A DNA stretch of 22,711 bases from Promethearchaeia archaeon (GCA_029856125.1 JAHQWJ010000116.1:1-22711); one strand, 5' to 3'; shown: positions 905-15,267, numbered from the stretch's first letter. Program-made: numbers and translations. Notes: generated by a model from the letters alone, not told the origin.

Positions 905-1304
905 GTCGTGCTAACAAAAAAAAATTGATTTTGTTATAGAACTAAAGTTGATTTTTTTTTGTTGTAAGTTTTTTGTTGTCTAATGTGTCAAATTGTTATC
1001 TTTTTTAGTTAAAATTGTTAAGAAATGTAACTATTTATATTTGAAGGTTCATTATAAAAAATTGAACTAACTGCCATTAATTCATCGGGATGTTATTAAA
1101 TATTTTTAATCAATTTTGATACATCCTTTTTATTTTTCTTGTATTATCTCAATACATTGACATTTTTATCTAAATACGCTCTATCCTACATCTCCGTAAA
1201 GAAAAGTTTATTACTATCTTAACATAATTATAATTGTTTTATTTGAAATTGTAATAAAAAATAATAAAAAACTTTAAAAACGAAACAAAATGGATTGATG
1301 AAAA

Positions 1305-1538
1305 ATGGTCGATATAAACGATACATTAGATTGTAGAGGAGAAGTCTGTCCTTATCCTGATGTTAAAAGTAAGAGAAAGACTAAAAAGATGGGCTCAGGA
1401 GAGGTCCTAAAGATTATTATAGATTACCCTCTTTCCGCGGAGCGAATTCCAGAAACAATGAAATCAATGGGACACGATGTACTGTCTGTAGATAAGACAG
1501 CCAATTCTGAATGGGAAATAGTAGTAAAAATCAAATAG
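1305..1538 (+). CDS. tusA: TusA/SirA/YedF-family sulfur carrier
   Basis: 77 aa; LDCRGEVCPYP (CPxP motif), GEVLKIIID.P, C-terminal W.I.V.I strand. Confidence 0.92.
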   Translation: MVDINDTLDCRGEVCPYPDVKSKRKTKKMGSGEVLKIIIDYPLSAERIPETMKSMGHDVLSVDKTANSEWEIVVKIK

Positions 1539-1557
1539 ACTAGAGGATGAAAAAGAT

Positions 1558-2616
1558 ATGGTAGATATTTTAGTTGTATTATTACCTGGATTAATTCTAG
1601 GAATAATATTTGGAATTATTTTGCAACGTGGCCGCTTTTGTATGAATTCTGCTTTTAGAGATATCCTTGTATTAAAAGAATTCTCTCTTATAAAGTCTGT
1701 AATTCTTGCGATTTTAATCTCTATGCTTGGATTCGCAATAATGGCCTTTGCCGGCATCATAAATTTAAACCCTAAACCATTCGCCCCAGTAGCAAATATT
1801 ATAGGCGGATTTATTTTTGGTATGGGTATGACGTTGGCTGCAGGATGTGCTAGTGGAACCACATATAGAGTTGGTGAAGGTATGATGGGCTCATTAGTGG
1901 CATTACTTGGATACTCAATTGGTGCGTATGTGACAAAATCAGGAGCATGGGCAGAGATTAAAACATTATTACAAACGTATAAAATTAGCGAAGAAGGAAC
2001 AGGAGCAAGCCTTACTGTATTTGGTTCAGAGCTTACCCCAATACTTATGCTCATAATCGGGATTGCTGGGATTGCTGTAGTATTAATCTTTTGGATATTG
2101 CCAATGCTGAAAAAGAGAAAAGCATCTGATAGTAAGATGTTTGATTTTTCTGATATGGGCAAAAAGATTTTCAAAAATGGATGGCCTTGGAGTATTACTG
2201 GACTCGCAATTGGAATATTAGCGTTATTTGCTTATGTTTCTTCAGCTGCGACTGGTAGAGATTATGCATTAGGAATTACTAGTGGTTGGTCCAATTGGCT
2301 TAAATATTGGACTACTGGTGCTGAATCAGCGTTAACTTGGGAAACTTTCTTAGTAGTTGGAGTTGTAATAGGTGCTTTTATTAGCTCAATGATTGCTGGT
2401 GAATTTAAATTAAGAGCCCCAAAAGATGGAAAAAGGATATTGATCCAATTTATCGGTGGATTAGCAATGGGCTTTGGAGCAGTAGTTGCAATGGGATGTA
2501 ATATAGGAAATACATTAAGCGGAATTCCACTTCTTTCGGTCGGTAGTTTAGTATCAACTGCGTTTATTATATTAGGTGCCTGGTTCTTGGCTTATTTCCT
2601 ATTTATGAGGAAATAA
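1558..2616 (+). CDS. yeeE: YeeE/YedE (TsuA-like) sulfur-compound membrane transporter
   Basis: 352 aa, multi-TM; three conserved Cys motifs QRGRFCM, LAAGCASG, AMGCNIG; GAGGA RBS. Confidence 0.92.
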   Translation: MVDILVVLLPGLILGIIFGIILQRGRFCMNSAFRDILVLKEFSLIKSVILAILISMLGFAIMAFAGIINLNPKPFAPVANIIGGFIFGMGMTLAAGCASGTTYRVGEGMMGSLVALLGYSIGAYVTKSGAWAEIKTLLQTYKISEEGTGASLTVFGSELTPILMLIIGIAGIAVVLIFWILPMLKKRKASDSKMFDFSDMGKKIFKNGWPWSITGLAIGILALFAYVSSAATGRDYALGITSGWSNWLKYWTTGAESALTWETFLVVGVVIGAFISSMIAGEFKLRAPKDGKRILIQFIGGLAMGFGAVVAMGCNIGNTLSGIPLLSVGSLVSTAFIILGAWFLAYFLFMRK

Positions 2617-2640
2617 TATAATATATATGGAGTTTAAACT

Positions 2641-3003
2641 ATGGCACGACTAGGAATTCTTTTTTTTGATGGCCCATACCAAACGCAAGCTTCTGAAACA
2701 GTAGTGAAACTAGCCAACGCTGCTTTAGATAAAGGTCACGACGTACATATCTTTTGCTACATGGATGCCGTGAATGCGCTCTTAGAAAATCAGAAAAAAA
2801 TTGAAGGAATTTTTAACATTGAAGAGGGTTTCAAAGAAATCCTAAGCAAGGGAGCTGTGATAAGGTTGTGTAATCTATGCCTTTTGGTGCGCGGAACTAT
2901 AAAAAACTGTATGAAAAAAGAACACGGCGATGTGAAACGGGCAGGAACGCCAGATCTTGCGAAAATTATAGAAGAAACTGATAGACTCGTGGTAATTTGT
3001 TAA
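2641..3003 (+). CDS. dsrE: DsrE/TusD-family sulfurtransferase subunit
   Basis: GPY motif, GHDVHIFCYMDAV, and C77-x2-C80-x3-RG matching TusD/DsrE catalytic C-x6-RG. Confidence 0.85.
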   Translation: MARLGILFFDGPYQTQASETVVKLANAALDKGHDVHIFCYMDAVNALLENQKKIEGIFNIEEGFKEILSKGAVIRLCNLCLLVRGTIKNCMKKEHGDVKRAGTPDLAKIIEETDRLVVIC

Positions 3004-3016
3004 GGTGATAAAAAAA

Positions 3017-3361
3017 ATGTCAGAAGGAAAAAATGTGGTTATCCTTTTACGGCAACCTCCTCATGGAACATTGTATCCTGTTGAGGGATTAAGAATGACG
3101 GTTGCCGTCAGTGGTGATTTTGAGCCAATTACTATAGCTATCAACGATGGTGTGTTTGCCTTTCTTAAAGACGTAGATAAAACTATGTATTCAATGCACA
3201 TCGATTTTATCAAAAATATCGATTTAGATATTTTTATTGATAAAAAGTCGCTTGACGAGCGTGGCCTTACAAAGGACGATTTAGTTGAACAGGTTGAAGT
3301 TAAAGAACATAGCGAAATATTAAAAATGATTGCGGATTCATCCGTAACCATACCATTCTAG
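3017..3361 (+). CDS. dsrF: DsrF/TusC-family subunit
   Basis: RQPPHG...EGLR, NDGVF, SLDERGL. ATG 3017 follows AGGTGA RBS (ORF track starts at GTG 3005). No Cys. Confidence 0.85.
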   Translation: MSEGKNVVILLRQPPHGTLYPVEGLRMTVAVSGDFEPITIAINDGVFAFLKDVDKTMYSMHIDFIKNIDLDIFIDKKSLDERGLTKDDLVEQVEVKEHSEILKMIADSSVTIPF

Positions 3362-3375
3362 GAGGATTGAATAAA

Positions 3376-3675
3376 ATGGGAAAAAAAGTGTTGTATTTTA
3401 TAACAAGTGAAGATTTTACAGGTGTAGAGCTTGCAATGGAACATACTGACGACGACGATGTGACAATCCTTTTACTTCAGAATGCGGTCTATTTCGCAAA
3501 TAAAGCAAACCAATCAGTTTCACAGGCGCTTAATCAAAAAAAAAGGGTAGTTGCTTGTAAGGAGCATATAGATATTCGTGGATTATCCAATTTCATCTCA
3601 GATGAAATTAAATTAGTCGCATCTGATGATGTGGTCGATTTAATTTTTGAAAATGAAACGATTATAAATATGTAA
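3376..3675 (+). CDS. dsrH: DsrH/TusB-family subunit
   Basis: ILLLQNAVY and IDIRGL motifs; ~100 aa; third gene of the E-F-H trio. Start is ATG 3376 or TTG 3367. Confidence 0.8.
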   Translation: MGKKVLYFITSEDFTGVELAMEHTDDDDVTILLLQNAVYFANKANQSVSQALNQKKRVVACKEHIDIRGLSNFISDEIKLVASDDVVDLIFENETIINM

Positions 3676-3694
3676 TATAATTATTTAAAATTAA

Positions 3695-3709
3695 TTTTTT
3701 TTTTTTTTT
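3695..3709 (+). terminator. Oligo-T terminator of the sulfur operon
   Basis: 15 consecutive T beginning 20 nt after the dsrH stop. Confidence 0.65.
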
Positions 3710-3808
3710 AATTTAATACTAAACAATGGTTTTTGTTAATATCAATATTTGTAAAATAAAGGAAGTAAATTTTTAAGAGTTAATACCCAATAATTTAATA
3801 TTAGTAAA

Positions 3809-4399
3809 ATGAAGAAATTCAAACTTGACAAAATCAATTTGGAAATATTAAATTCTCTTGTAAAGGATAATAAGATAAATTACTCACAATTAGGAAAAAA
3901 ATTAGGATTATCACACGTTGCTATTAAGAATAGATTTGAGAGTTTGATAAACAATAACTTTATTAAAACAAACATAGCAGTCAATTTTTCAAAACTTGAT
4001 TATAAATTAGGATTAATATTAATGGAAGTAGAGACTTCAGTTTTAGAACATCTTTTTGAGATATATCAAAAATGTCCTAGAGTAATTTATTATTTTGAAG
4101 TAATGGGTCAATATAATCTGGCACTATTATTTTTTGGTGAAAATGAAAAGACCTTTGAAACAATTCTTAAATCTTGTATGCTATATTCGATAGAGGGGAT
4201 ACATAAATCAAATATTTTAATATATAGATATTCTCCTGAAGATATATTTTTACCATTAAATTTTTCTTTACTTAATCAGGAAAGTGAGGATACCCCATGT
4301 GGGACTTGCTGTAACAATTGCGGAGCATTTAAAGAAAATAGATGTGTTGGCTGTCCGGCATCATTTTATTATAAAGGTTCCCTTAAAGTCACAGATTAG
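3809..4399 (+). CDS. Lrp/AsnC-family transcription regulator with Cys-rich C-terminal extension
   Basis: N-terminal HTH (LDKINLEILNSL...YSQLGKKLGLSHVAIKNR), RAM domain (EVMGQYNL), tail PCGTCCNNCGAFKENRCVGCPAS. Confidence 0.88.
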   Translation: MKKFKLDKINLEILNSLVKDNKINYSQLGKKLGLSHVAIKNRFESLINNNFIKTNIAVNFSKLDYKLGLILMEVETSVLEHLFEIYQKCPRVIYYFEVMGQYNLALLFFGENEKTFETILKSCMLYSIEGIHKSNILIYRYSPEDIFLPLNFSLLNQESEDTPCGTCCNNCGAFKENRCVGCPASFYYKGSLKVTD

Positions 4400-4454
4400 A
4401 TTAAAATTTAATCCAAAGCTTAAAAAACCAATTTTAAACAAGTTGATTTTTATT

Positions 4455-4817
4455 ATGCCTTCTGAAAAAACTCTAAGTGATTACTACGATACTACCGGTC
4501 GTGAAGATATTTTAACTGGTGGAATCAAAATGATACCTATCCAGACTCCATTCGGTGAATTTAAAGTCTGGACTAAAAGGATTGGAAATAATCCCACAAT
4601 CAAAGTACTTCTCCTTCATGGAGGTCCTGGTGCAACCCATGAATTTTTTGAATGCGTTGATAGCTTCTTTCCAGCAGAGGGATTTGAATACTACTATTAC
4701 GACCAGTTGGGATCCTATTATAGTGACCAACCTACAGAACCCGGCTTATAGGAGACATCTAGATTTGTCGAGGAAGTAGAACAAGTTAGAAAAGCTCTAA
4801 AATTAGACAAATCTAAC
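4455..4817 (+). pseudogene. pip: Proline iminopeptidase-family alpha/beta hydrolase, nonsense-disrupted and 3'-truncated
   Basis: ATG 4455; LLLHGGPG and YYDQLGS motifs. TAG 4749-4751 falls where Trp is expected, then similarity resumes in frame (ETSRFVEEVEQVRKALKLDKSN) and stops before the GxSxG nucleophile. Confidence 0.85.
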
Positions 4818-4954: not shown

Positions 4955-5788
4955 TTAGTATTCCCCCAAGAATTGCTTTATTTTGGGGTTTTGAGCTAGT
5001 ATCTCCTTCATTTTTATCTTTGGATGGTTATATCTAGCCCTACCTAGAGTATATTCACCCCATTGAATAGCTATTTGGGGACAATAATGGAGACACGCTG
5101 TGCACATTTGACATCTATGCTGCCACTCAGGTTTTTCATTTACGAGTTTTATATTATCGACGGGACAGATTTGTTGACAAATTCCACAACCATTACAATT
5201 TTCATCTGTATAGTACTTTTCATCCATAGTATTTACTTCTTTTATAAAAGAGTAATAAGAATTCTTCATTGGGTAAATAGAACTTTCCCTTACCTTACCT
5301 TTCTGATTATTACGAATTATTTTAGCAATTTTTTCTATCTTTAATTCACCGTTCTTTATTCTCTTATCTCCTTTTTCTTTTGAAGGAACGGGATTCATTC
5401 GTTTTGATCCCCATATGTTATTTGAAAAAATTCTTATATTATATGCAGCATCAAGCTCTTTGTTTTTTGGTTTCAATAACTTTATCAGCACCGGCGATAC
5501 ATACTGCTTGGAAAAACCTCCCATAGTAGTAACAGCAAAAATATATTTTGCATTACTTAAATCTATCTTCTCAATAAAATCAGAGACAATTTTAGGGAGA
5601 GCCCAAGAATAAACTGGAAAAACAAAGCCAACTTTTTCTGATGTGGCGATTATAGAATCTTGTTTCATTAGACTCGCAATCGGTAGAAGTTCGCAATCAT
5701 CAAGTTTTTCTTTAAGACATTTGGCCGTATGTAATGAGTTTCCTGTGCCAGAAAAATAATATAGTGTTGTATTGATATTTTGAGTAAT
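4955..5788 (-). CDS. EFR1-type flavodoxin-ferredoxin fusion (2x[4Fe-4S])
   Basis: CNGCGICQQICP and CQMCTACLHYCP; VFPVY. The frame stays open upstream of ATG 5668 through TTLYYFSGTGNSL (FMN loop) to ATT 5788, with no ATG/GTG/TTG before the upstream TAA. Confidence 0.85.
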   Translation of the reverse strand: MTQNINTTLYYFSGTGNSLHTAKCLKEKLDDCELLPIASLMKQDSIIATSEKVGFVFPVYSWALPKIVSDFIEKIDLSNAKYIFAVTTMGGFSKQYVSPVLIKLLKPKNKELDAAYNIRIFSNNIWGSKRMNPVPSKEKGDKRIKNGELKIEKIAKIIRNNQKGKVRESSIYPMKNSYYSFIKEVNTMDEKYYTDENCNGCGICQQICPVDNIKLVNEKPEWQHRCQMCTACLHYCPQIAIQWGEYTLGRARYNHPKIKMKEILAQNPKIKQFLGEY

Positions 5789-6002: not shown

Positions 6003-6689
6003 TTGAGTATTGAAATTTTCCTATCTGGTTTTCTCTATCTGTTTATTTTGGTTTTGCAAATTGCGATGGCAGTATTTGGTTACATATTAGAGCCTACACC
6101 GAAGCATTATGAATCAGACGATAAACTGCTAAGTTTTAACAATAATCCAAAAAAGTTTCAAATAAGCGTCGTATTAGCGCTCATTGAACATTTTAGCGTC
6201 GTTACTCTTCCTATAGTATTGTTTATTGTTTTTAGTTCCTATAACATAATACTTGGAATTGTATGGATGATCTTCCGAATAGCAGAAGGCTTGATCCAAG
6301 TCTATATAGAAAAAGACTATTGGAGACTTCTCAATATAGCAAAAAAATACTCAATTAGTAGTGATGCGGAAAAGAATCCGTTGATTGATTCATATCATAC
6401 AATTCTCAAAGCAAAAAGCTATAGATTTACATTTGCAATGATCTGTTGGTCCATTGGTACTCTTGCATTATCAATCGTGTTAGTTACCTATGTATTAGCG
6501 GTACCCCCCTTTATCGGATGGTTAGGAATCGCTGCGAGCATTGGCATTGGTTTAGTTAATGTGGCAAAACTGGTAAAACCTAACTTAAAGGTTTATGACA
6601 CCGTCTCATCTATCTTTGGCATGTTGTCGATTGTATTTGAACTAATCATCGGAGGATGGCTAATATATTATTCGTTCATCATCCCTTAG
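6003..6689 (+). CDS. DUF4386-like multi-pass membrane protein, paralog 1
   Basis: 228 aa, about 6 TM; SGFLYLFI, RIAEG, P.FIGWLGIAAS, FELIIGGWL motifs shared with the two paralogs; TTG start. Confidence 0.7.
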   Translation: MSIEIFLSGFLYLFILVLQIAMAVFGYILEPTPKHYESDDKLLSFNNNPKKFQISVVLALIEHFSVVTLPIVLFIVFSSYNIILGIVWMIFRIAEGLIQVYIEKDYWRLLNIAKKYSISSDAEKNPLIDSYHTILKAKSYRFTFAMICWSIGTLALSIVLVTYVLAVPPFIGWLGIAASIGIGLVNVAKLVKPNLKVYDTVSSIFGMLSIVFELIIGGWLIYYSFIIP

Positions 6690-6701
6690 CTGATTTTTAG
6701 G

Positions 6702-6720
6702 AAAAAAAAATAAAAAAAAA
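6702..6720 (-). terminator. Oligo-T terminator between convergent genes
   Basis: A9-T-A9 on + strand, immediately after the MDR stop. Confidence 0.5.
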
Positions 6721-6721
6721 C

Positions 6722-7684
6722 CTAAATATGGTCTAGAGTTAATACTACTTGTCCCTTTTTCTGCCCGGATTCGATATACCTGTGAGCTTCAGATATCTGT
6801 TCCAACGGATAGCGTTTATCTATGACCGTCTTTAATTTTCCAGCTTCAATAAGTTCTTTAAGATAAATTAAATCTTCAGCTCTTTCTTCTAAGAGTCCAC
6901 TTACTGCTTTCTTGTTACTAAATACTCGAAGAGCCCGTCCCAACCCAAAGGTCGTAAAAACATAGAATCCCTCTTCCGTTAGCATTCTTTTGCTAGCTGA
7001 AAACGGACTCTTGCCTATCGTATCAAAAATAATGTCATACTTCTCGTCGCTTTTGGTAAAATCCTCTTTGGTATAATCAATTACTTTATCGGCTCCAAGA
7101 GACCTCACTAATTCTAATTTCGGGGTGCTGCATACTCCAGTTACTTTTGCCCCAAAGTACTTGGCAAGTTGGACTCCAAAAGTCCCTACCCCTCCCGATG
7201 CGCCAAAGATGAGAACTTTTTGTCCGCTCTGGATCTTACCCATTCTTAAGAAATACAATGCGGTTAAACCCCCATAAGGAATGGCAGTGGCTTCTTCATA
7301 TGTCATATTAGCGGGTTTTATTGCCACTGCCCCATCTTCAGGCATACATACGTATTCAGCATTAGCTCCCAAATTCATCCCGGTGAATCCAAAAACTTGG
7401 TCACCCTTCTTGAATAGATTTACATCTTTACCTACGGATTCAATTTCCCCAGCTAATTCAGTCCCAAGTATTGGTTTCTTTGGTTTTCTGAGTCCAGACG
7501 ATAATTTTATTAATAACCCAAATCCAGGAGGACCTGTGCAAGCTCTCCCCCAACAGTCGTATAATGTTGCTGTCGTCGCATATACTCTTATCAGTACTTC
7601 ATTGTCCTTGGGAGTTGGTTTTTCTACCTCCTTGACCTGAAGAACCTCCGGAGGTCCGTATTTTGAGTATACAGCCGCTTTCAT
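6722..7684 (-). CDS. Zinc-independent MDR (quinone-oxidoreductase-like) NAD(P)-dependent oxidoreductase, paralog 1
   Basis: [15 protein letters not shown]; GTELAG in place of the Zn-binding GHE; GASGGVG; LGADKVIDY; AHRYIESG. Possible 19-codon extension from ATT 7741. Confidence 0.9.
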
Positions 7685-9049: not shown

Positions 9050-9850
9050 TTAAAGCCCCTCCGTAATTCTTCTACCTGTAATTTTTAAAAATACTTTCTC
9101 TAAATCTTCTACATTGTGTTTTTCCATTAATTCTTTAGGCGTACCAGTATCGATCAACTCACCAAAATCAATAATAGCAACGTGATCACTAAGAGCTTCT
9201 GCTTCCTCGATATAATGGGTTGTCAAAACAATAGTTTTTCCTCTCTCCTTAAGAGAACCGATAAATTCCCAAGTTTTTCGACGTACTCGTGCATCCATAC
9301 CCACCGTAGGTTCGTCAAGAAATAGAATATCTGGGTCCCCAATTAAGGCCATCAACATATTAATCTGACGCAGCATTCCACCGCTATAACCCTTTGCTTT
9401 TCGCTTGCTTTGTTCTGTAAAATCTGTTGCTTCTAAGAGCTCATTGGTTTTCTCTTTTAACACCTTTTTATCTAGTGCATGGAGATTTCCATAAAGTTCA
9501 ATATTTTCTCGTCCTGAAAGAAACTTATAGATAGCTGCTTGTTGAGGGCAAACACCAATCAATTCTTTGATCTTATTAAGATCATTCCTTACATTATACC
9601 CTCCTACATAAATTTCACCGCTCGTCGGTTTTAATAGACCAATCATCATTTTAATAGTCGTAGTCTTCCCCGCACCATTTGGTCCTAATAAACCAAATAT
9701 TTCACCTTTATTTATCTTAAAAGAAATATCTTGAACGGCCTTTACATCATCGAAATGCTTTTTTAGATTTTGAACCTCAATTGCTATATTGTTAGAACTT
9801 CCTTTTTTCAAATCAGATTCTTCTGAAATTGTCATTTTTTCATCACTCAT
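9050..9850 (-). CDS. ABC exporter ATP-binding protein (DrrA-like)
   Basis: Walker A GPNGAGKT, signature YSGGM, Walker B ILFLDEPT, H-loop LTTH. Confidence 0.95.
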   Translation of the reverse strand: MSDEKMTISEESDLKKGSSNNIAIEVQNLKKHFDDVKAVQDISFKINKGEIFGLLGPNGAGKTTTIKMMIGLLKPTSGEIYVGGYNVRNDLNKIKELIGVCPQQAAIYKFLSGRENIELYGNLHALDKKVLKEKTNELLEATDFTEQSKRKAKGYSGGMLRQINMLMALIGDPDILFLDEPTVGMDARVRRKTWEFIGSLKERGKTIVLTTHYIEEAEALSDHVAIIDFGELIDTGTPKELMEKHNVEDLEKVFLKITGRRITEGL

Positions 9851-9852
9851 AT

Positions 9853-10065
9853 TTAATTATTTTTTGTTTTATTTATCTTGTACCATAATAATCCATAATT
9901 TAACGCTGGACCCGCAATTGTAATTACAAGTGATATGATAAAGAACGCTAAGTTTGGAGCGTTCATCCAATAAATAGGCCACATAATTATCAATACGACG
10001 ATCCATATCCCCAAAATTACCCAATTAATTTCTTTATATGTTGGGGATTTTTTTGTATCACTCAT
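9853..10065 (-). CDS. Small 2-TM membrane protein, first gene of the ABC operon
   Basis: 70 aa, two hydrophobic helices; stop lies 2 nt from the ATPase start. Confidence 0.7.
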   Translation of the reverse strand: MSDTKKSPTYKEINWVILGIWIVVLIIMWPIYWMNAPNLAFFIISLVITIAGPALNYGLLWYKINKTKNN

Positions 10066-10346
10066 TTTTATTGTTTTTTTATTTTTTTTTGTTCGGTTTT
10101 TTTTTGTTTAAACCTATTTTATATGAAAATTATTGCCCAAAATTAAATTTATCGATAATATCCTATAACCTTGCGCATTATGAATAAATATTCAATTAAA
10201 AAAATGTAAAAATACTTGGTCAATTAATCAACTAATCTAAATAATCTAATAACAATAACATTAGACTAAAAAGAAGTTATTTTTTCAAAATTCACTTCTT
10301 TTACAAAAATAAAAACAAAGATTATTATATAGAATTAGAAAAAACA

Positions 10347-10502
10347 CTATTTAGGAACTATAGTTATTACTACATTTCCCTTTTTGTGTCCTTTTTCGAC
10401 ATATCTGTGAGCTTCTACTATTTGTTCCAATGGATATTTTTTATCTATAGCTGATTTAACCTTTCCAGTTTCACAGAGTTCTTTGAGAAAAATTAGATTC
10501 AT
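10347..10502 (-). pseudogene. C-terminal 51-aa stub of a fourth MDR oxidoreductase
   Basis: Not in the ORF track: [51 protein letters not shown], matching the C-termini of the three intact paralogs. Confidence 0.85.
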
Positions 10503-10605
10503 TTTTTTATGTTTTATTGGTAATTTTAATAGATTATTTTTTTATTTAAAAATAATCATTTTTTGGCTAAATTTAATACAGATTCGCGTTCTAATAAAAG
10601 AAGGT

Positions 10606-10866
10606 TCACAAATTTGGAAAAAAAATATTCAACGGAAACTTATTGCCTTTAGATAGAAGGAAAGGTAATTTTCCATCGAAATAATCAGAATATAAAATAA
10701 AAAACAAACAACCTAAAAAATCAATAAAATCCTCATTTTTATTCTCAAATGAATATATATTGGAACTTAAAATATCAAAATTTTTTCCAATTAGTTGAAA
10801 TTTGGGAAAACAACCAGCTCTTTTTTTTTCATTTTGTTCTAAGTAATTGATCAAGCCAACAATCAT
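10606..10866 (-). CDS. Hypothetical protein or fragment
   Basis: 86-aa ORF co-oriented with neighbours; no motif recognised. Confidence 0.35.
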   Translation of the reverse strand: MIVGLINYLEQNEKKRAGCFPKFQLIGKNFDILSSNIYSFENKNEDFIDFLGCLFFILYSDYFDGKLPFLLSKGNKFPLNIFFPNL

Positions 10867-10922
10867 AATACTTTGCTGATAAAAAAATAAAAAAAATTAT
10901 TTTTTGATTTTAGAAATAAATT

Positions 10923-11288
10923 CTAGCTTCCTTTATTTTTAGCGCTTAACTTGATTATTCCTCCAGATAATACCCCAAACACAATAGTAAGGGAAATGGC
11001 AACAACGAGGAACATCATATTGCTTGGATCGAGTAGTGCGTAAGCAACCCAAACGACTCCTATAGCTGCTCCAAATAACCAGCCAATTACTTCTTTAACA
11101 TCAACTTCCTTTTTGCTTAACGCAATAAGTCCACCAGATACTGTACCCAACAATATTGTTAGGGAAATAGCTACAACGAGAAACAACATATTTCCTGCTC
11201 CGAGAAATGCAAAAGCTATCCAGACGACTGCTATAAGTGCGCCTAAGAGTTCGCCAATTAATGTTTTAGAATTATACAAATTTTTCAC
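10923..11288 (-). CDS. 4-TM membrane protein built from an internal tandem duplication
   Basis: Two ~57-aa units, each IG.L.GA.I.VVW.A.A.L...NM.FLVVAISLTI..G..SGG.I.LS. Confidence 0.75.
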   Translation of the reverse strand: MKNLYNSKTLIGELLGALIAVVWIAFAFLGAGNMLFLVVAISLTILLGTVSGGLIALSKKEVDVKEVIGWLFGAAIGVVWVAYALLDPSNMMFLVVAISLTIVFGVLSGGIIKLSAKNKGS

Positions 11289-11668: not shown

Positions 11669-12340
11669 TTAAAAAAACAACAGAAATATCCCGATGATTA
11701 CTTCAAATGAAATCGCCGACAGACCACCTACAATTAATAGGACTCGAAAGCTAGTTTTTGTTTTAAGGTTAGGTTTTTTAAGTCCTATCACATTATCTAA
11801 GCCAATTAAAATACTGGCAACAATACCTAACCATCCAATAAAGATGGGTGCCACTCCATAGGTAATTAAAACGATTGAAAATGCAAGATTACCAATGGTC
11901 CAAAGGATCATAGCAAATTTGAATCTAGAGCCAATTGCTTTGGTAGTGGTACGAGCTAAATCAATCAACGAACTTTTTTCGGCGCTATCACTACTTGAGT
12001 ATTTTCCTGCTATTTTGAGAAAACTCCCGTAGTTTTTATCATTAGAGATTAGGATCAAGCCTTCTCCTATTCGACAGATGAGTAGAACAATTCCAAGTAT
12101 TATGTTATATGGAGGACCAAAAACTAAAAACAGTGTTATAGTAAGAGTAATGACGCTTACATTATGTATGAGCGCCAACACGAGCGTTAGTTGAAATTTT
12201 TTTCGATTCTCGTTAATCCTTTGTAGTTCAGCTTCAAAATCACTTATTTCTACTTTATAACCTAATACTGGTTGAATTACGACGTATAAAACTAGTATAA
12301 ACAGAAAGAGAAAACCAGCTAATTTTATTAGGATAATCAA
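11669..12340 (-). CDS. DUF4386-like membrane protein, paralog 2
   Basis: 223 aa; [31 protein letters not shown]; TTG start. Confidence 0.7.
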   Translation of the reverse strand: MIILIKLAGFLFLFILVLYVVIQPVLGYKVEISDFEAELQRINENRKKFQLTLVLALIHNVSVITLTITLFLVFGPPYNIILGIVLLICRIGEGLILISNDKNYGSFLKIAGKYSSSDSAEKSSLIDLARTTTKAIGSRFKFAMILWTIGNLAFSIVLITYGVAPIFIGWLGIVASILIGLDNVIGLKKPNLKTKTSFRVLLIVGGLSAISFEVIIGIFLLFF

Positions 12341-12363
12341 AGGGAATACTCCACATTGCTGTA

Positions 12364-12380
12364 TTTTTTATGTAAATTAT
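12364..12380. repeat. 17-bp direct repeat, copy B
   Basis: Exact match to 11651-11667. Confidence 0.7.
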
Positions 12381-12402
12381 ATTGTGTAATTTTTTGTCAT
12401 CT
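12378..12402 (-). repeat. 25-bp RBS+ATT leader element, copy 3
   Basis: + strand tatattgtgtaattttttgtcatct; 22/25 identical to copy 2. Confidence 0.7.
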
Positions 12403-12586
12403 CTGTTTTAATTTATTTCTAATTATATTTTTTTTATCATAACTGTTTAAAAAAGTTTATTAAAGTATTACCTTAAAATATCCTAAAAATGTCAAAAATA
12501 AAACTTAATCATCACATGGATAAAAAAAATATAGCAGATTTTAATTATTCGTTTATTCCTCCTTTTAAATCAGTCGAAACCACTTA

Positions 12587-13522
12587 TTAGGGTTTGTTAC
12601 TATGTTCCACATTTATGACCACATTTCCCTTCTTGTGCCCTTTGTCAACGTATCTATGAGCTTCTACGATCTCTTCCAACGGTAGAGTTCTATCAATGAC
12701 TGCTTTTAACTTTCCTGCTTCAATAAGCTCTTTGAGGAAAAATAGTACATCCGTTGACACCTTTGTTGACATCTTAATGTTAAGATAAGTTCCTGTCTTC
12801 TTTAGAAACTTTTTACCTTGAGAAGTCGGAATCTTGTCTACTGCATCAAAAATAACGTCATAAGGCTCACCACTTTTGGTGAAATCCTCTTTTGTGTAAT
12901 CAATTACCTTATCGGCTCCCAGAGATCTCACCATTTCTAAATTAGTTGTACTGCATACTCCGGTAACCTCTGCCCCAAAGGATTTGGCAAGCTGTACCGC
13001 AAGGGAACCTGCACTTCCGGAAGCTCCATAGATCAAAACTCTTTGCCCATTCTGGATATTTGCCTTTCTAAGAATACTCAGTACTGTAATTCCCGAAGCG
13101 GGAATTGCGGCAGCTTCCTCGTAGGTCATATTAGTCGGTTTTAGAGATATCACACCCCTTTTTGCCACCTTCCCTTCTACAGGTAAAGCAGGCTGACATA
13201 TATACTCGGCATAAGCACCAAAACTAAAACCGGTGAACGCAAAAACTTGGTCACCTTTCTTAAATACTTCTACATCTTTGCCTACTGCTTCAATTTCCCC
13301 AGAGAACTCCATCCCTAGTATAGTTATTCTCTTTGGTCTTTTTAAACCATTATAAAGTTTTGCTGCCTTTGGCTCACCCTTTCGCATGTTCGAATCCCCG
13401 TGATGGACTGTTGTTGCATGAATCTTCACGAGTACTTCATTGGCCTTTGGAATAGGTTTTTCTACTTCTTTGAGCTGAAGAACTTCAGGTGATCCGTATT
13501 TTTCATATACAATCGCTTTCAT
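12587..13522 (-). CDS. Zinc-independent MDR oxidoreductase, paralog 2
   Basis: 311 aa; [34 protein letters not shown]. Confidence 0.9.
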
Positions 13523-13566: not shown

Positions 13567-14220
13567 TTAATAAAAAAACAATAGCCATCCTCCCAAGACT
13601 ACTTCAAAAATCAAGATTAACAGCCCTCCTAAGCTCCACAGGATTTTAACGTTAGGTTTTACTCGAAATATCCCGTTACCGAAGCCATAGAGAATGCTAG
13701 CAATAATTCCAAACCATCCAATAATTGATGGTACAACTCCATAAGTAACAAACAGGATTGAGTATGCGAGTGTACCTATGGAGAATAAGATTTGTGCAAA
13801 TGTGAATCGAGACTCTTTTGTATTAAGAATGCTGCGACCTAAATCAATTAATGTATCTCTTTTAGCACCACTAGTATCTGGGTATTTTATTGCTAGATCG
13901 AGGAGTCCCCAGTAGCTTTTTTTATCATAGATTTGGATCAAGGCTTCTCCTATTCGAGAGATAGCCCAAACAATTCCTAGTATTATGTTATATGGGCTAA
14001 AAGCAAGAAACAATGTTACAGCAAGAGAAATTATGCTAAAGTGTTCTATGAGGATTAGCACGAAACTAATTTTAAATTTTTTTGGATCGGTGTTAATCTC
14101 TTGCAGTTTAGCGTCTGAATTCAAATCACTAAATGTTTTATAGCCAAATTTACCACTTGTAATGTTTGTAATTATAATAAACAGAAAGAGAAAACCAGAT
14201 AACTTCGCTTCGATAATCAA
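13567..14220 (-). CDS. DUF4386-like membrane protein, paralog 3
   Basis: 217 aa; [33 protein letters not shown] start overlaps the upstream MDR TGA (TTGA). Confidence 0.7.
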
Positions 14221-15170
14221 AAGGAATCCCTCATAGATATTATTACATGTCCTGTTTTATCGCCTGTTTCAACATACCTGTTGGCCTCGGCAGTCTGTTC
14301 CAGCGGGTAGCTTCTATCTATGATCGATTTTATCTTTCCCGCTTCAATAAGCTCTTTTATTATTAGTAAAACTTCAAGCTTCGGCTTGACTCCCGTACCC
14401 TTTATAACGTTTAGATAGAGTCCTGTCGTCTTTAGAGTCTTTTTAGCTCGTGAAGACGAAATCTTGCCTACTATGTCAAGAATATAATCATAAGTCTCAC
14501 CGCTTTTTGTGAAATCTTCTTGAGTGTAATCGATGACATGGTCTGCACCAATGGAGCGCAGCATGTCCAATTTATTCGTGCTGTCCACAGCAGTCACTTC
14601 AGCCCCATAGTACTTGGCCAGTTGTACCGCAAAAGTACCTACAGTTCCACCCGCACCATTAATCAGAACTTTTTGTCCAATCTGGATATTTCCTTGTCTA
14701 ATATACTCCAATGCTTCAAGGCCCCCAACAGGAACGGCGGTAGCTTCTTCATAGGTCATATTGGTCGGTTTTATTGCCATTATCGCCTGATCAGATTTTT
14801 CAGATTTTTCAGATTTTTCAGGTAGACATATGTACTCAGCCCAAGCACCCATACCGATAAAACCGGTAGCTGCAAAAACTTGGTCACCTTTCTTAAATAG
14901 TGTTACATCTTTGCCTACTGATTCAATTTCCCCGGCTAACTCCATCCCTAGTTTAGTTATCCTCGTTGGTCTTCTGAGACCCACATATGCGCGCATGAGG
15001 TACCGGAACTTGAGTGCGGTTTTCATTCTTCGCATTTCACAATCCCCAGCTGTTACTGTTGTTGCATGTATTTTTATCAATACTTCATTGTCCTTGGGAG
15101 TAGGTTTTTCTACTTCTTTGAGCTGAAGAACATCCGGAGGGCCGTATTTTGTCCATACAATCGCCTTCAT
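14217..15170 (-). CDS. Zinc-independent MDR oxidoreductase, paralog 3
   Basis: [15 protein letters not shown], start by analogy with paralogs (track start 15197); [22 protein letters not shown]. Confidence 0.9.
14791..14821. repeat. In-frame 9-bp tandem repeat (TCAGATTTT x3.4)
   Basis: Encodes EKSEKSEKS in MDR paralog 3. Confidence 0.9.
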
Positions 15171-15267
15171 AATAAGCCTTATTAGAATACATTCCATATA
15201 AATTGATGTCTGGGTTAAGAATGATTATTCTTTTCCATTTTTTTCACTCTTTTTTAATTTTGAACTG

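Follow-up and report, generated by a model that had tools for sequence, protein, structure and literature searches.

A tusA-yeeE-dsrEFH operon of a Loki-type archaeon as a probable sulfane-sulfur uptake-and-relay module with a possible link to a hydrogenase-HdrCB

All characterised members of the YeeE transporter family are importers (PMC11073785, PMC11582611), and the YeeE/YeeD (TsuA/TsuB) pair of Escherichia coli works in assimilation (PMC11073785). In Thermotoga maritima, a transcription unit of yeeE, dsrE and tusA is upregulated 42.6-fold on thiosulfate, which is converted to H2S in the cytoplasm (PMC9431562). For the YTD clusters with DsrEFH type II of Desulfobacterota and Nitrospirota, sulfur transfer from TusA to DsrC was obtained in vitro (PMC13293266; PMC12998232), and approximately 74% of the genomes carrying type II have a reductive dsrAB (PMC13293266). 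A 2025 preprint on the Asgard archaeon Nerearchaeum marumarumayae presents a genome-based cartoon in which TsuA imports thiosulfate, TusA and DsrE carry persulfides and a group 3c hydrogenase-Hdr reduces them, in an organism without sulfite reductase; the pathway is framed there as ‘reductive assimilation’ (10.1101/2025.07.22.663070). Here we describe a tusA-yeeE-dsrE-dsrF-dsrH operon of a Loki-type Asgard archaeon (Promethearchaeia archaeon, GCA_029856125.1). The stretch analysed, referred to as the window, is the entire contig JAHQWJ010000116.1 (C116; 22,711 nt) and belongs to a genome of 3.69 Mb that is 99% complete. Among named organisms, its proteins are closest to those of metagenome-assembled genomes of Promethearchaeota/Lokiarchaeota and of Promethearchaeum syntrophicum, from which the Loki-type assignment follows.

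Homology, conserved residues and gene neighbourhood together make it reasonably probable that the operon serves to take up and relay sulfane sulfur, with a hydrogenase-HdrCB as the most likely sink. The import-plus-relay part, taken by itself and based on homology and conserved residues, can be held with considerable confidence. The part concerning Hdr as the sulfur sink, which draws on gene neighbourhood, is tentative.

The operon and its import and relay proteins

Five open reading frames (ORFs) in one orientation, tusA, yeeE, dsrE, dsrF and dsrH, lie between positions 1305 and 3675 of the window (Table 1). As read from the sequence, the gaps measure 19 nt between tusA and yeeE and 24 nt between yeeE and dsrE. 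The next two depend on the start codon: 1 nt between dsrE and dsrF, or 13 nt when dsrF starts at ATG 3017, and 5 nt between dsrF and dsrH, or 14 nt when dsrH starts at ATG 3376. For dsrF, the ATG is the more likely start than GTG 3005 because the orthologues are 114 amino acids (aa) long. Oligo-T tracts terminate transcription in archaea, and the T15 tract behind dsrH is thus probably the terminator of the operon. A preliminary description of this DNA had listed five genes with gaps of at most 24 nt, a T15 tract and then an Lrp gene, which ORF calling, Pfam searches and reading of the sequence bear out in every detail. The same description had placed an import module and a DsrEFH-like trio together in one archaeal-looking operon, and the profile searches that it proposed (TusA, Sulf_transp, DsrE and DsrH) gave matches above the Pfam cut-offs for all five proteins. 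It had also suggested a survey of gene order: the five genes stand in the same order in all related loci that were inspected, and the arrangement is therefore not due to chance. Contamination of the contig was ruled out, with a typical GC content (~31-38%) and operon proteins that are 84-88% identical to those of a genome of the same genus.

Both import proteins match their families well, TusA with 76.5 bits to PF01206 (cut-off 28.6) and YeeE with 303 bits to PF04143 (Sulf_transp; cut-off 27) over residues 24-343. The closest characterised relative of YeeE is YeeE/TsuA of Spirochaeta thermophila (6LEO; 5e-68, residues 9-351). TusA is nearest to TM0983 of T. maritima (1JDQ; 4e-25) and to S. thermophila YeeD/TsuB (8J4C; 9e-21), whereas the matches to E. 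coli YedF (1JE3; 4e-7) and E. coli TusA (1e-4) are far weaker. The active cysteine of TusA, C15, stands in the CPYP motif where it had been placed before and is invariant in 15/15 Asgard orthologues. Equally invariant, in 16 Asgard orthologues, are the three pore cysteines of YeeE (C28, C97 and C314). Judged by its sequence, the tusA-yeeE pair is of the TsuB/TsuA (YeeD/YeeE) thiosulfate-uptake type and not of the YedF/YedE selenium type.

The relay trio is recognised by Pfam as well: DsrE and DsrF match PF02635 with 65 and 30.9 bits (cut-off 22.7) and DsrH matches PF04077 with 39.5 bits (cut-off 24.4). Similarity to the structures of Allochromatium vinosum is weak but significant for DsrE (4e-6) and DsrF (2HY5_B; 2e-7). 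The only match of DsrH in the PDB search, to E. coli TusB (2D1P_C; E = 0.014), is marginal. In DsrE, C77 was found at the position previously claimed, and it aligns with the catalytic cysteine of E. coli TusD and with the CxxC motif of YchN. In a set of 20 distant homologues, with identities down to ~30%, conservation of C77 and C80 reaches 90% or more, and the RG dipeptide is invariant. Within the Asgard orthologues, C39, C77, C80, C90 and the C-terminal C120 are all invariant; DsrF has no conserved cysteine.

The DsrE clade is rather isolated in sequence: a search of 1.84 billion representatives gave only 17 clusters at E < 1e-10. Its nearest relatives outside the Lokiarchaeia (34-42% identity) belong to tusA-dsrEFH clusters of Desulfobacteraceae, anammox Planctomycetota, Actinomycetota and Chloroflexi that adjoin CCG/Hdr-like genes, which makes the pairing of DsrE/TusA carriers with CCG-domain reductases a broad theme. 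The top match of the DsrE search was a 2350-aa protein of the representative library (P0116) with 41 separate DsrE-like stretches, which could be a giant repeat protein or result from faulty assembly or gene calling.

Candidate acceptors for the relayed sulfur

The window operon works without DsrC, DsrAB, TusE and MnmA. No match to DsrC/TusE (PF04358) was found anywhere in the genome, nor one to NIR_SIR (PF01077), so DsrAB and any other siroheme sulfite reductase are absent. A search for MnmA (PF03054) yielded only PP-loop fragments of at most 25 bits in the whole genome, which holds one Ncs6/TtuA-like PP-loop gene. Genes for dsrC, dsrAB and mnmA are missing from the window too. The preliminary description had noted the absence of DsrC/TusE, MnmA and DsrAB from the window, which is correct and extends to the genome; the canonical dsrC/tusE pathway that it considered might lie elsewhere was not found there. 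Accordingly, neither of the classical routes, Dsr or Tus, is supplied by the relay.

A second tusA-yeeE-dsrEFH operon is present in the genome, on contig C18 (L013), and points to a candidate terminal acceptor. It stands head-to-head with a hydrogenase operon, with ~480 bp between the two divergent units. The products of the hydrogenase operon are a small subunit of 441 aa that resembles MvhG, a large subunit that resembles MvhA (5ODC_F; 9e-105), HdrC and HdrB (8RVU_b; 7e-67). Between the large-subunit gene and hdrC lies a small VhuU-like ORF (L013:12082-12234), overlooked by standard ORF calling, with an in-frame TGA inside the nickel-site motif DCU..C..H, where U is selenocysteine (Sec). The large subunit is accordingly split and the enzyme is a Vhu-type [NiFeSe] hydrogenase. 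Both CCG cluster motifs are present in HdrB and both 4Fe-4S motifs in HdrC. At its C-terminus, the small subunit has an additional domain with eight cysteines. Neither HdrA nor MvhD is encoded in this hydrogenase locus. In the window's genus, the hydrogenase-linked sulfur operon is always followed, after dsrH, by genes for a 266-aa protein outside any Pfam family and an amino-acid-kinase-family protein (L013:4784-6426 and the orthologues in L023, L026, L027, L038 and L039).

The sulfur operon and the hydrogenase-HdrCB genes adjoin each other in at least 20 genomes of Lokiarchaeia, and their arrangement takes three forms. The two operons are divergent in the window's genus; in the cultured Promethearchaeum syntrophicum MK-D1 (G038), nine genes follow each other on one strand (tusA-yeeE-dsrE-dsrF-dsrH-small subunit-hdrC-hdrB-large subunit); and a more distant metagenome-assembled genome (MAG) has a third layout. 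Because the paralogue and these orthologous operons, including that of MK-D1, adjoin its genes, the hydrogenase-HdrCB is the best candidate acceptor. The term ‘self-contained’, which the preliminary description had applied to the relay, is not supported, as the paralogue and many orthologues have a hydrogenase-HdrCB operon beside them.

In the mechanism that we propose, the TsuA-type YeeE would import thiosulfate or a closely related sulfane-sulfur anion, and its cognate TusA/YeeD would take the sulfane sulfur on Cys15, with release of sulfite if thiosulfate is the substrate. From TusA, the sulfur would pass to Cys77 of the DsrE subunit in a DsrEFH-like complex and then to a CCG-type disulfide/persulfide reductase, formed by the [NiFeSe] hydrogenase, whose small, large and Sec-bearing U subunits are Vhu-like, together with HdrC and HdrB. 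The hydrogenase-HdrCB would use H2 and free H2S, and perhaps re-reduce a disulfide or trisulfide between Cys77 and Cys80 of DsrE. The H2S could serve biosynthesis, and the reaction would give a fermenter an outlet for electrons and H2. Sulfite would exit via TauE, of which the genome encodes three putative exporters. The window copy would be a second feeder module under separate control by its Lrp-Cys regulator. A more specific version, which we consider doubtful, holds that in Lokiarchaeia carrier-bound sulfane sulfur from TsuA-TusA-DsrEFH is a physiological substrate of the non-bifurcating [NiFeSe] hydrogenase-HdrCB, and that Cys77-x-x-Cys80 of DsrE would act towards it as the two cysteines of DsrC do for DsrK. 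Resolution of the persulfide or trisulfide would yield H2S and leave a disulfide, which H2 would then reduce again.

If this version is true, Asgard archaea possess a thiosulfate/polysulfide sink that consumes H2 and is served by two uptake modules under different regulation, and a substrate is found for the Hdr of Asgard archaea that are not methanogens, which has long lacked an explanation. No prokaryotes are more closely related to eukaryotes than the Asgard archaea, and one model of eukaryote origin invokes hydrogen-sulfur syntrophy. The linkage to hydrogenase-HdrCB makes the Hdr sink testable, since the cassette stands beside these genes in the cultured MK-D1 and is present twice in the window genome.

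Several observations weigh against the proposed mechanism. A hydrogenase-HdrCB orthologue is present in 159/161 Lokiarchaeia genomes, whereas the sulfur operon is patchy: DsrE orthologues with >60% identity occur in ~41/161 genomes, and 44/161 carry the operon at E <= 1e-10. Hdr must therefore have another substrate as well. Adjacency could reflect an insertion hot spot, and the related genomes in the adjacency counts are not independent samples. No hydrogenase or Hdr gene adjoins the window copy itself. Genome G003 contains two window-type operons and its best match to this HdrB reaches only 3.8e-91 (the genome is 83% complete), so the orthologous Hdr may not be required. As for the substrate, YeeE and the DsrEFH proteins all score under the NCBIfam equivalog cut-offs, which makes any assignment of specificity provisional: YeeE obtains 324 against 400 bits for the Spirochaeta-type TsuA (NF052577) and 205 against 645 for NF041049, DsrE 34 against 89 (TIGR03012), DsrF 46.8 against 94 (TIGR03010) and DsrH, barely under its cut-off, 48.3 against 49.2 (TIGR03011). 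In cable bacteria, thiosulfate failed to persulfidate TusA or DsrEFH type II in vitro (PMC13293266), for which reason the transported species could be polysulfide.

Of the other explanations, a purely biosynthetic supply stands up best, and we still regard it as unlikely. Persulfide from TusA/DsrEFH would then go to Fe-S cluster, tRNA-thiolation, molybdopterin or thiamine enzymes, and the hydrogenase-Hdr neighbourhood of the paralogue would be coincidental. TusA proteins are general sulfur hubs, the Ncs6/TtuA-like enzyme offers a possible recipient, the window copy is without a reductase neighbour, and the genome, having no sulfite reductase, needs reduced sulfur. The assimilatory role of the E. 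coli pair (PMC11073785) and the wording of the Nerearchaeum preprint (10.1101/2025.07.22.663070) agree with such a supply. However, the usual biosynthetic sulfur route is cysteine desulfurase, which is encoded outside the operons: the genome has two such enzymes, one of them directly adjoining another tusA on contig C25. The operon is moreover accessory (~27% of Lokiarchaeia; 5/40 high-quality genomes), which would be odd for a core supply in sulfidic sediments, and its linkage to hydrogenase-HdrCB survives three gene arrangements. An 800-aa ORF with a TusA domain lies ~3 kb from the desulfurase-tusA pair on C25 (G000 contig C25:6368-10785, L017), and the genome further contains dsrEFH a third time, here without a transporter, as well as dsrE paired with tusA.

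Import and trafficking of selenium by YedE/YedF-like proteins, which would feed SelD for selenoproteins including the Sec hydrogenase beside the paralogue, is very improbable. The preliminary description had called the CPYP motif YedF-like and named selenium as an alternative to sulfur. YedF is indeed the best NCBIfam match of TusA (53 bits), two tandem selD genes with one in-frame TGA (Sec) each are present (G000 contig C24:553-2855), the hydrogenase beside the paralogue has a Sec codon, and YeeE-family and DsrE-like selenoproteins are known (PMC13188914). All selenium-specific models nevertheless remain far under their cut-offs, both for TusA (YedF models NF008242, 53 against 79 bits, and TIGR03527, 28 against 110) and for YeeE (YedE models NF033796, 124 against 350 bits in a partial match, and TIGR04112, 65 against 200), and the closest characterised relatives belong to the thiosulfate system TsuA/TsuB. 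With selD in 144/161 Lokiarchaeia and the operon in 44/161, most selenium users do without the operon, and at least three operon carriers (G071, G073 and G100, two of these genomes being <80% complete) show no selD. Co-occurrence of selD and the operon is itself uninformative as a selenium test, as selD is nearly universal in the class. The selD genes on C24 are unlinked to both operons; two selD copies are also found in many Lokiarchaeia of the window's genus and of genus g22.

We give hardly any credence to dissimilatory sulfur oxidation or disproportionation, by which the relay would feed DsrC-DsrAB in the manner of YTD / type II or serve an sHdr-LbpA-like oxidation to sulfite. The architecture resembles the yeeE-tusA-dsrEFH of Desulfobacterota (PMC13293266), the nearest DsrE relatives outside the Lokiarchaeia adjoin TusA and CCG/Hdr-like genes, and a Hodarchaeota locus with the order dsrEFH-tusA-tusA-GcvH/LbpA-like-hdrC-hdrB-hdrA is sHdr-like. 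Against it, the genome has neither DsrC nor DsrAB, no GcvH-like (LbpA) or HdrA gene lies near the window operon or the C18 paralogue, and similarity could not be detected between the window DsrE and the DsrE-like protein encoded in a probable YTD cluster. The partner is furthermore an H2-oxidising hydrogenase, and redox potentials indicate that sulfur oxidation could not drive H2 formation. No more plausible is sulfane-sulfur detoxification or export, with YeeE facing outward, the relay collecting reactive persulfides and the Lrp-Cys protein sensing sulfane sulfur. It would suit the Cys-rich tail of the adjoining regulator and the control of YeeE-like SoxT genes by sulfane-responsive regulators in Hyphomicrobium (PMC11582611), and inward transport is a prediction for this clade. 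However, every characterised YeeE-family member imports (PMC11073785, PMC11582611), and external thiosulfate induces the T. maritima unit alongside H2S production (PMC9431562).

The window variant, its regulator and neighbouring features

The window and C18 copies differ unevenly: YeeE is ~51% and TusA 74% identical between them, compared with 92% for DsrE, 84% for DsrF and 86% for DsrH. The divergence thus concerns the transporter and first carrier, whereas the relay is common to both copies or has been homogenised. The window copy may accordingly differ in substrate, affinity or regulation and yet feed the same downstream chemistry as the C18 copy. In trees, the window YeeE and TusA cluster with copies from G016 and G003 that have no hydrogenase neighbour, and the window-type YeeE clade is sister to the hydrogenase-linked YeeE clade of the MK-D1 family.

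An Lrp-Cys gene also accompanies window-type operons elsewhere: orthologues with 56-58% identity adjoin them in G003 (two copies), L036 and L042, where the gene is divergent from the operon. The helix-turn-helix (HTH) part of the regulator is of AsnC type (PF13404; 29.5 bits). For the RAM/AsnC_trans_reg effector domain, no Pfam match was obtained; sub-threshold NCBIfam matches (ChrS, LysM, AsnC) cover residues 3-141. Residues 160-196 form an additional Cys-rich tail without a family match, with cysteines at positions 164, 167, 168, 171, 179 and 182, of which C164, C168, C171, C179 and C182 are invariant in the 7/7 aligned sequences.

An alignment of the regions upstream of tusA in six window-type operons revealed a conserved block that corresponds to positions 1201-1254 of the window. 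Relatives (L019, L020, L036 and L042) carry the full palindrome TTACAAWTTGTAA three times per Lrp-Cys/tusA intergenic region, one copy lying just downstream of the TATA-like box of tusA. For the Lrp regulator with its Cys tail, TTACAAWTTGTAA is a candidate operator; in the window, the TATA-like box would act as promoter and the half-palindrome as operator. The sequence at 1242-1254 is a copy of TTACAAWTTGTAA with two mismatches, which on its own occurs at chance frequency. No exact copy was found in the genome. With the window copy at chance frequency and no exact genomic copy, no TTACAAWTTGTAA regulon is claimed for this genome.

Table 1. Coordinates of the operon, its flanking signals and the adjoining regulator gene in the window (all positions counted from the first nucleotide of the contig)
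Feature	Position	Strand	Characteristics
Putative promoter	1201-1254	+	TATA-like TTTATTA at 1207-1213; ~30 nt further downstream, degenerate half-palindrome TTTGAAATTGTAA at 1242-1254
tusA / yeeD(tsuB)-type sulfur carrier, 77 aa	1305-1538	+	PF01206; active Cys15 in CPYP
yeeE / tsuA-type membrane transporter, 352 aa	1558-2616	+	PF04143 across full length
dsrE-like subunit, 120 aa	2641-3003	+	PF02635; motif C77-x-x-C80 ... R84-G85
dsrF-like subunit, 114-118 aa	3005-3361	+	PF02635; start GTG 3005 or ATG 3017
dsrH-like subunit, 99-102 aa	3367-3675	+	PF04077; start TTG 3367 or ATG 3376
T15 tract	3695-3709	+	Read from the sequence; 20 nt past the dsrH stop
Lrp/AsnC-type regulator gene with C-terminal Cys cluster	3809-4399	+	PF13404 and PF13412 HTH matches

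Elsewhere in the window, a short ORF at 4448-4751 resembles the N-terminal part of an alpha/beta-hydrolase (proline iminopeptidase-like, with an HGGPG motif) and ends after ~100 aa. It lies ahead of a convergent EFR1-type ferredoxin gene (4955-5668) and is probably a gene stump. A gene pair, in which a zinc-type alcohol dehydrogenase comes after a DUF4386 membrane protein, occurs three times (6003-7684, 11669-13522 and 13567-15197), with 52-56% identity among the copies. A stretch of ~1 kb (9850-10923) that separates an ABC-transporter ATPase gene from the gene after it has a GC content of only 23% and contains no ORF of 90 aa or more.

Comparison with described sulfur modules

The S. thermophila and E. 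coli YeeE(TsuA)-YeeD(TsuB) systems (6LEO, 8J4C; PMC11073785) share with the Asgard pair the adjoining tusA-like and yeeE genes, the three pore cysteines and the CPxP cysteine. The Asgard pair differs in its predicted co-transcription with a DsrEFH-like trio and in a host without sulfite reductase, in which sulfite released from thiosulfate is consequently not assimilable.

As in DsrEFH type I of A. vinosum (2HY5) and TusBCD of E. coli (2D1P), the Asgard trio consists of three paralogous subunits in the order E/D, F/C and H/B, and the position of the catalytic cysteine is retained in DsrE. To this, the window DsrE adds a CxxC partner cysteine and three further invariant cysteines, and none of the partners DsrC/TusE, DsrAB or MnmA is encoded in the genome.

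The YTD / DsrEFH type II clusters of Desulfobacterota and Nitrospirota (PMC13293266, PMC12998232) also combine a YeeE-family transporter, TusA and a heterotrimeric DsrEFH-like transferase with one functional cysteine in DsrE. Their gene order is yeeE-tusA, in contrast to tusA-yeeE in the window operon, and the window genome is without DsrC and DsrAB. A search of 201 Desulfobacterota genomes with the window DsrE returned only tusA-dsrEFH clusters that have no yeeE, whereas a search with YeeE returned yeeE-tusA followed by three small proteins outside Pfam. The example selected, L167, was taken as a YTD cluster on its architecture alone and encodes proteins of 95, 57 and 104 aa. No BLAST alignment between its 104-aa DsrE-like protein and the window DsrE was obtained at E <= 100, and the Asgard hidden Markov models matched none of the three small proteins. 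By sequence, the Asgard trio is accordingly not of type II.

The sHdr-LbpA sulfur-oxidising system differs by its HdrA, its second HdrBC set and its lipoate-binding LbpA, which the window and C18 loci do not have. An sHdr-like locus was seen in the Hodarchaeota MAG DZ1B.339 (L082:1-6374). There, dsrE is truncated at the end of the contig and is accompanied by dsrF, dsrH, two tusA genes, a gene for a GcvH/LbpA-like lipoate protein, hdrC, hdrB and a fusion of HdrA with MvhD (789 aa).

The Nerearchaeum scheme, compared by its description, has the same components and the same flow as our proposal. Synteny analysis, paralogue analysis and a Lrp-Cys regulator were not found in the accessible part of that preprint (10.1101/2025.07.22.663070).

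Closest in gene order are the Thermotogae, of which we compared Marinitoga lauensis (L069) and one uncultured Thermotogae locus, with the T. maritima unit taken from its published description. The Marinitoga operon has the identical order tusA-yeeE-dsrE-dsrF-dsrH, with a 118-aa ORF at the dsrF position, and its DsrE is 33% identical to the window DsrE and carries the same CxxC..RG motif. The host lives by fermentation and produces H2. Downstream of the Marinitoga operon lies a gene for a pyridine-nucleotide disulfide oxidoreductase, whereas the neighbours in Lokiarchaeia are the [NiFeSe] hydrogenase-HdrCB or the Lrp-Cys regulator. Near the oxidoreductase (L069:8194-10076), the opposite strand encodes a 196-aa ArsR-HTH/TusA fusion, a candidate sulfane-sensing regulator.

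With the Thermotogae gene order, the published and functionally similar YTD/type II cluster and the Nerearchaeum scheme (10.1101/2025.07.22.663070) at hand, the ‘possibly undescribed’ pathway of the preliminary description was an overstatement. What stands of its interpretation is the union of import and relay and the missing classical acceptors; selenium, novelty and self-containment do not. For the window operon itself, the outcome is largely one of annotation: the tusA-yeeE-dsrEFH module known from Thermotoga has an Asgard representative here, which is equipped with its own Cys-tailed Lrp regulator and does not constitute a new kind of pathway.

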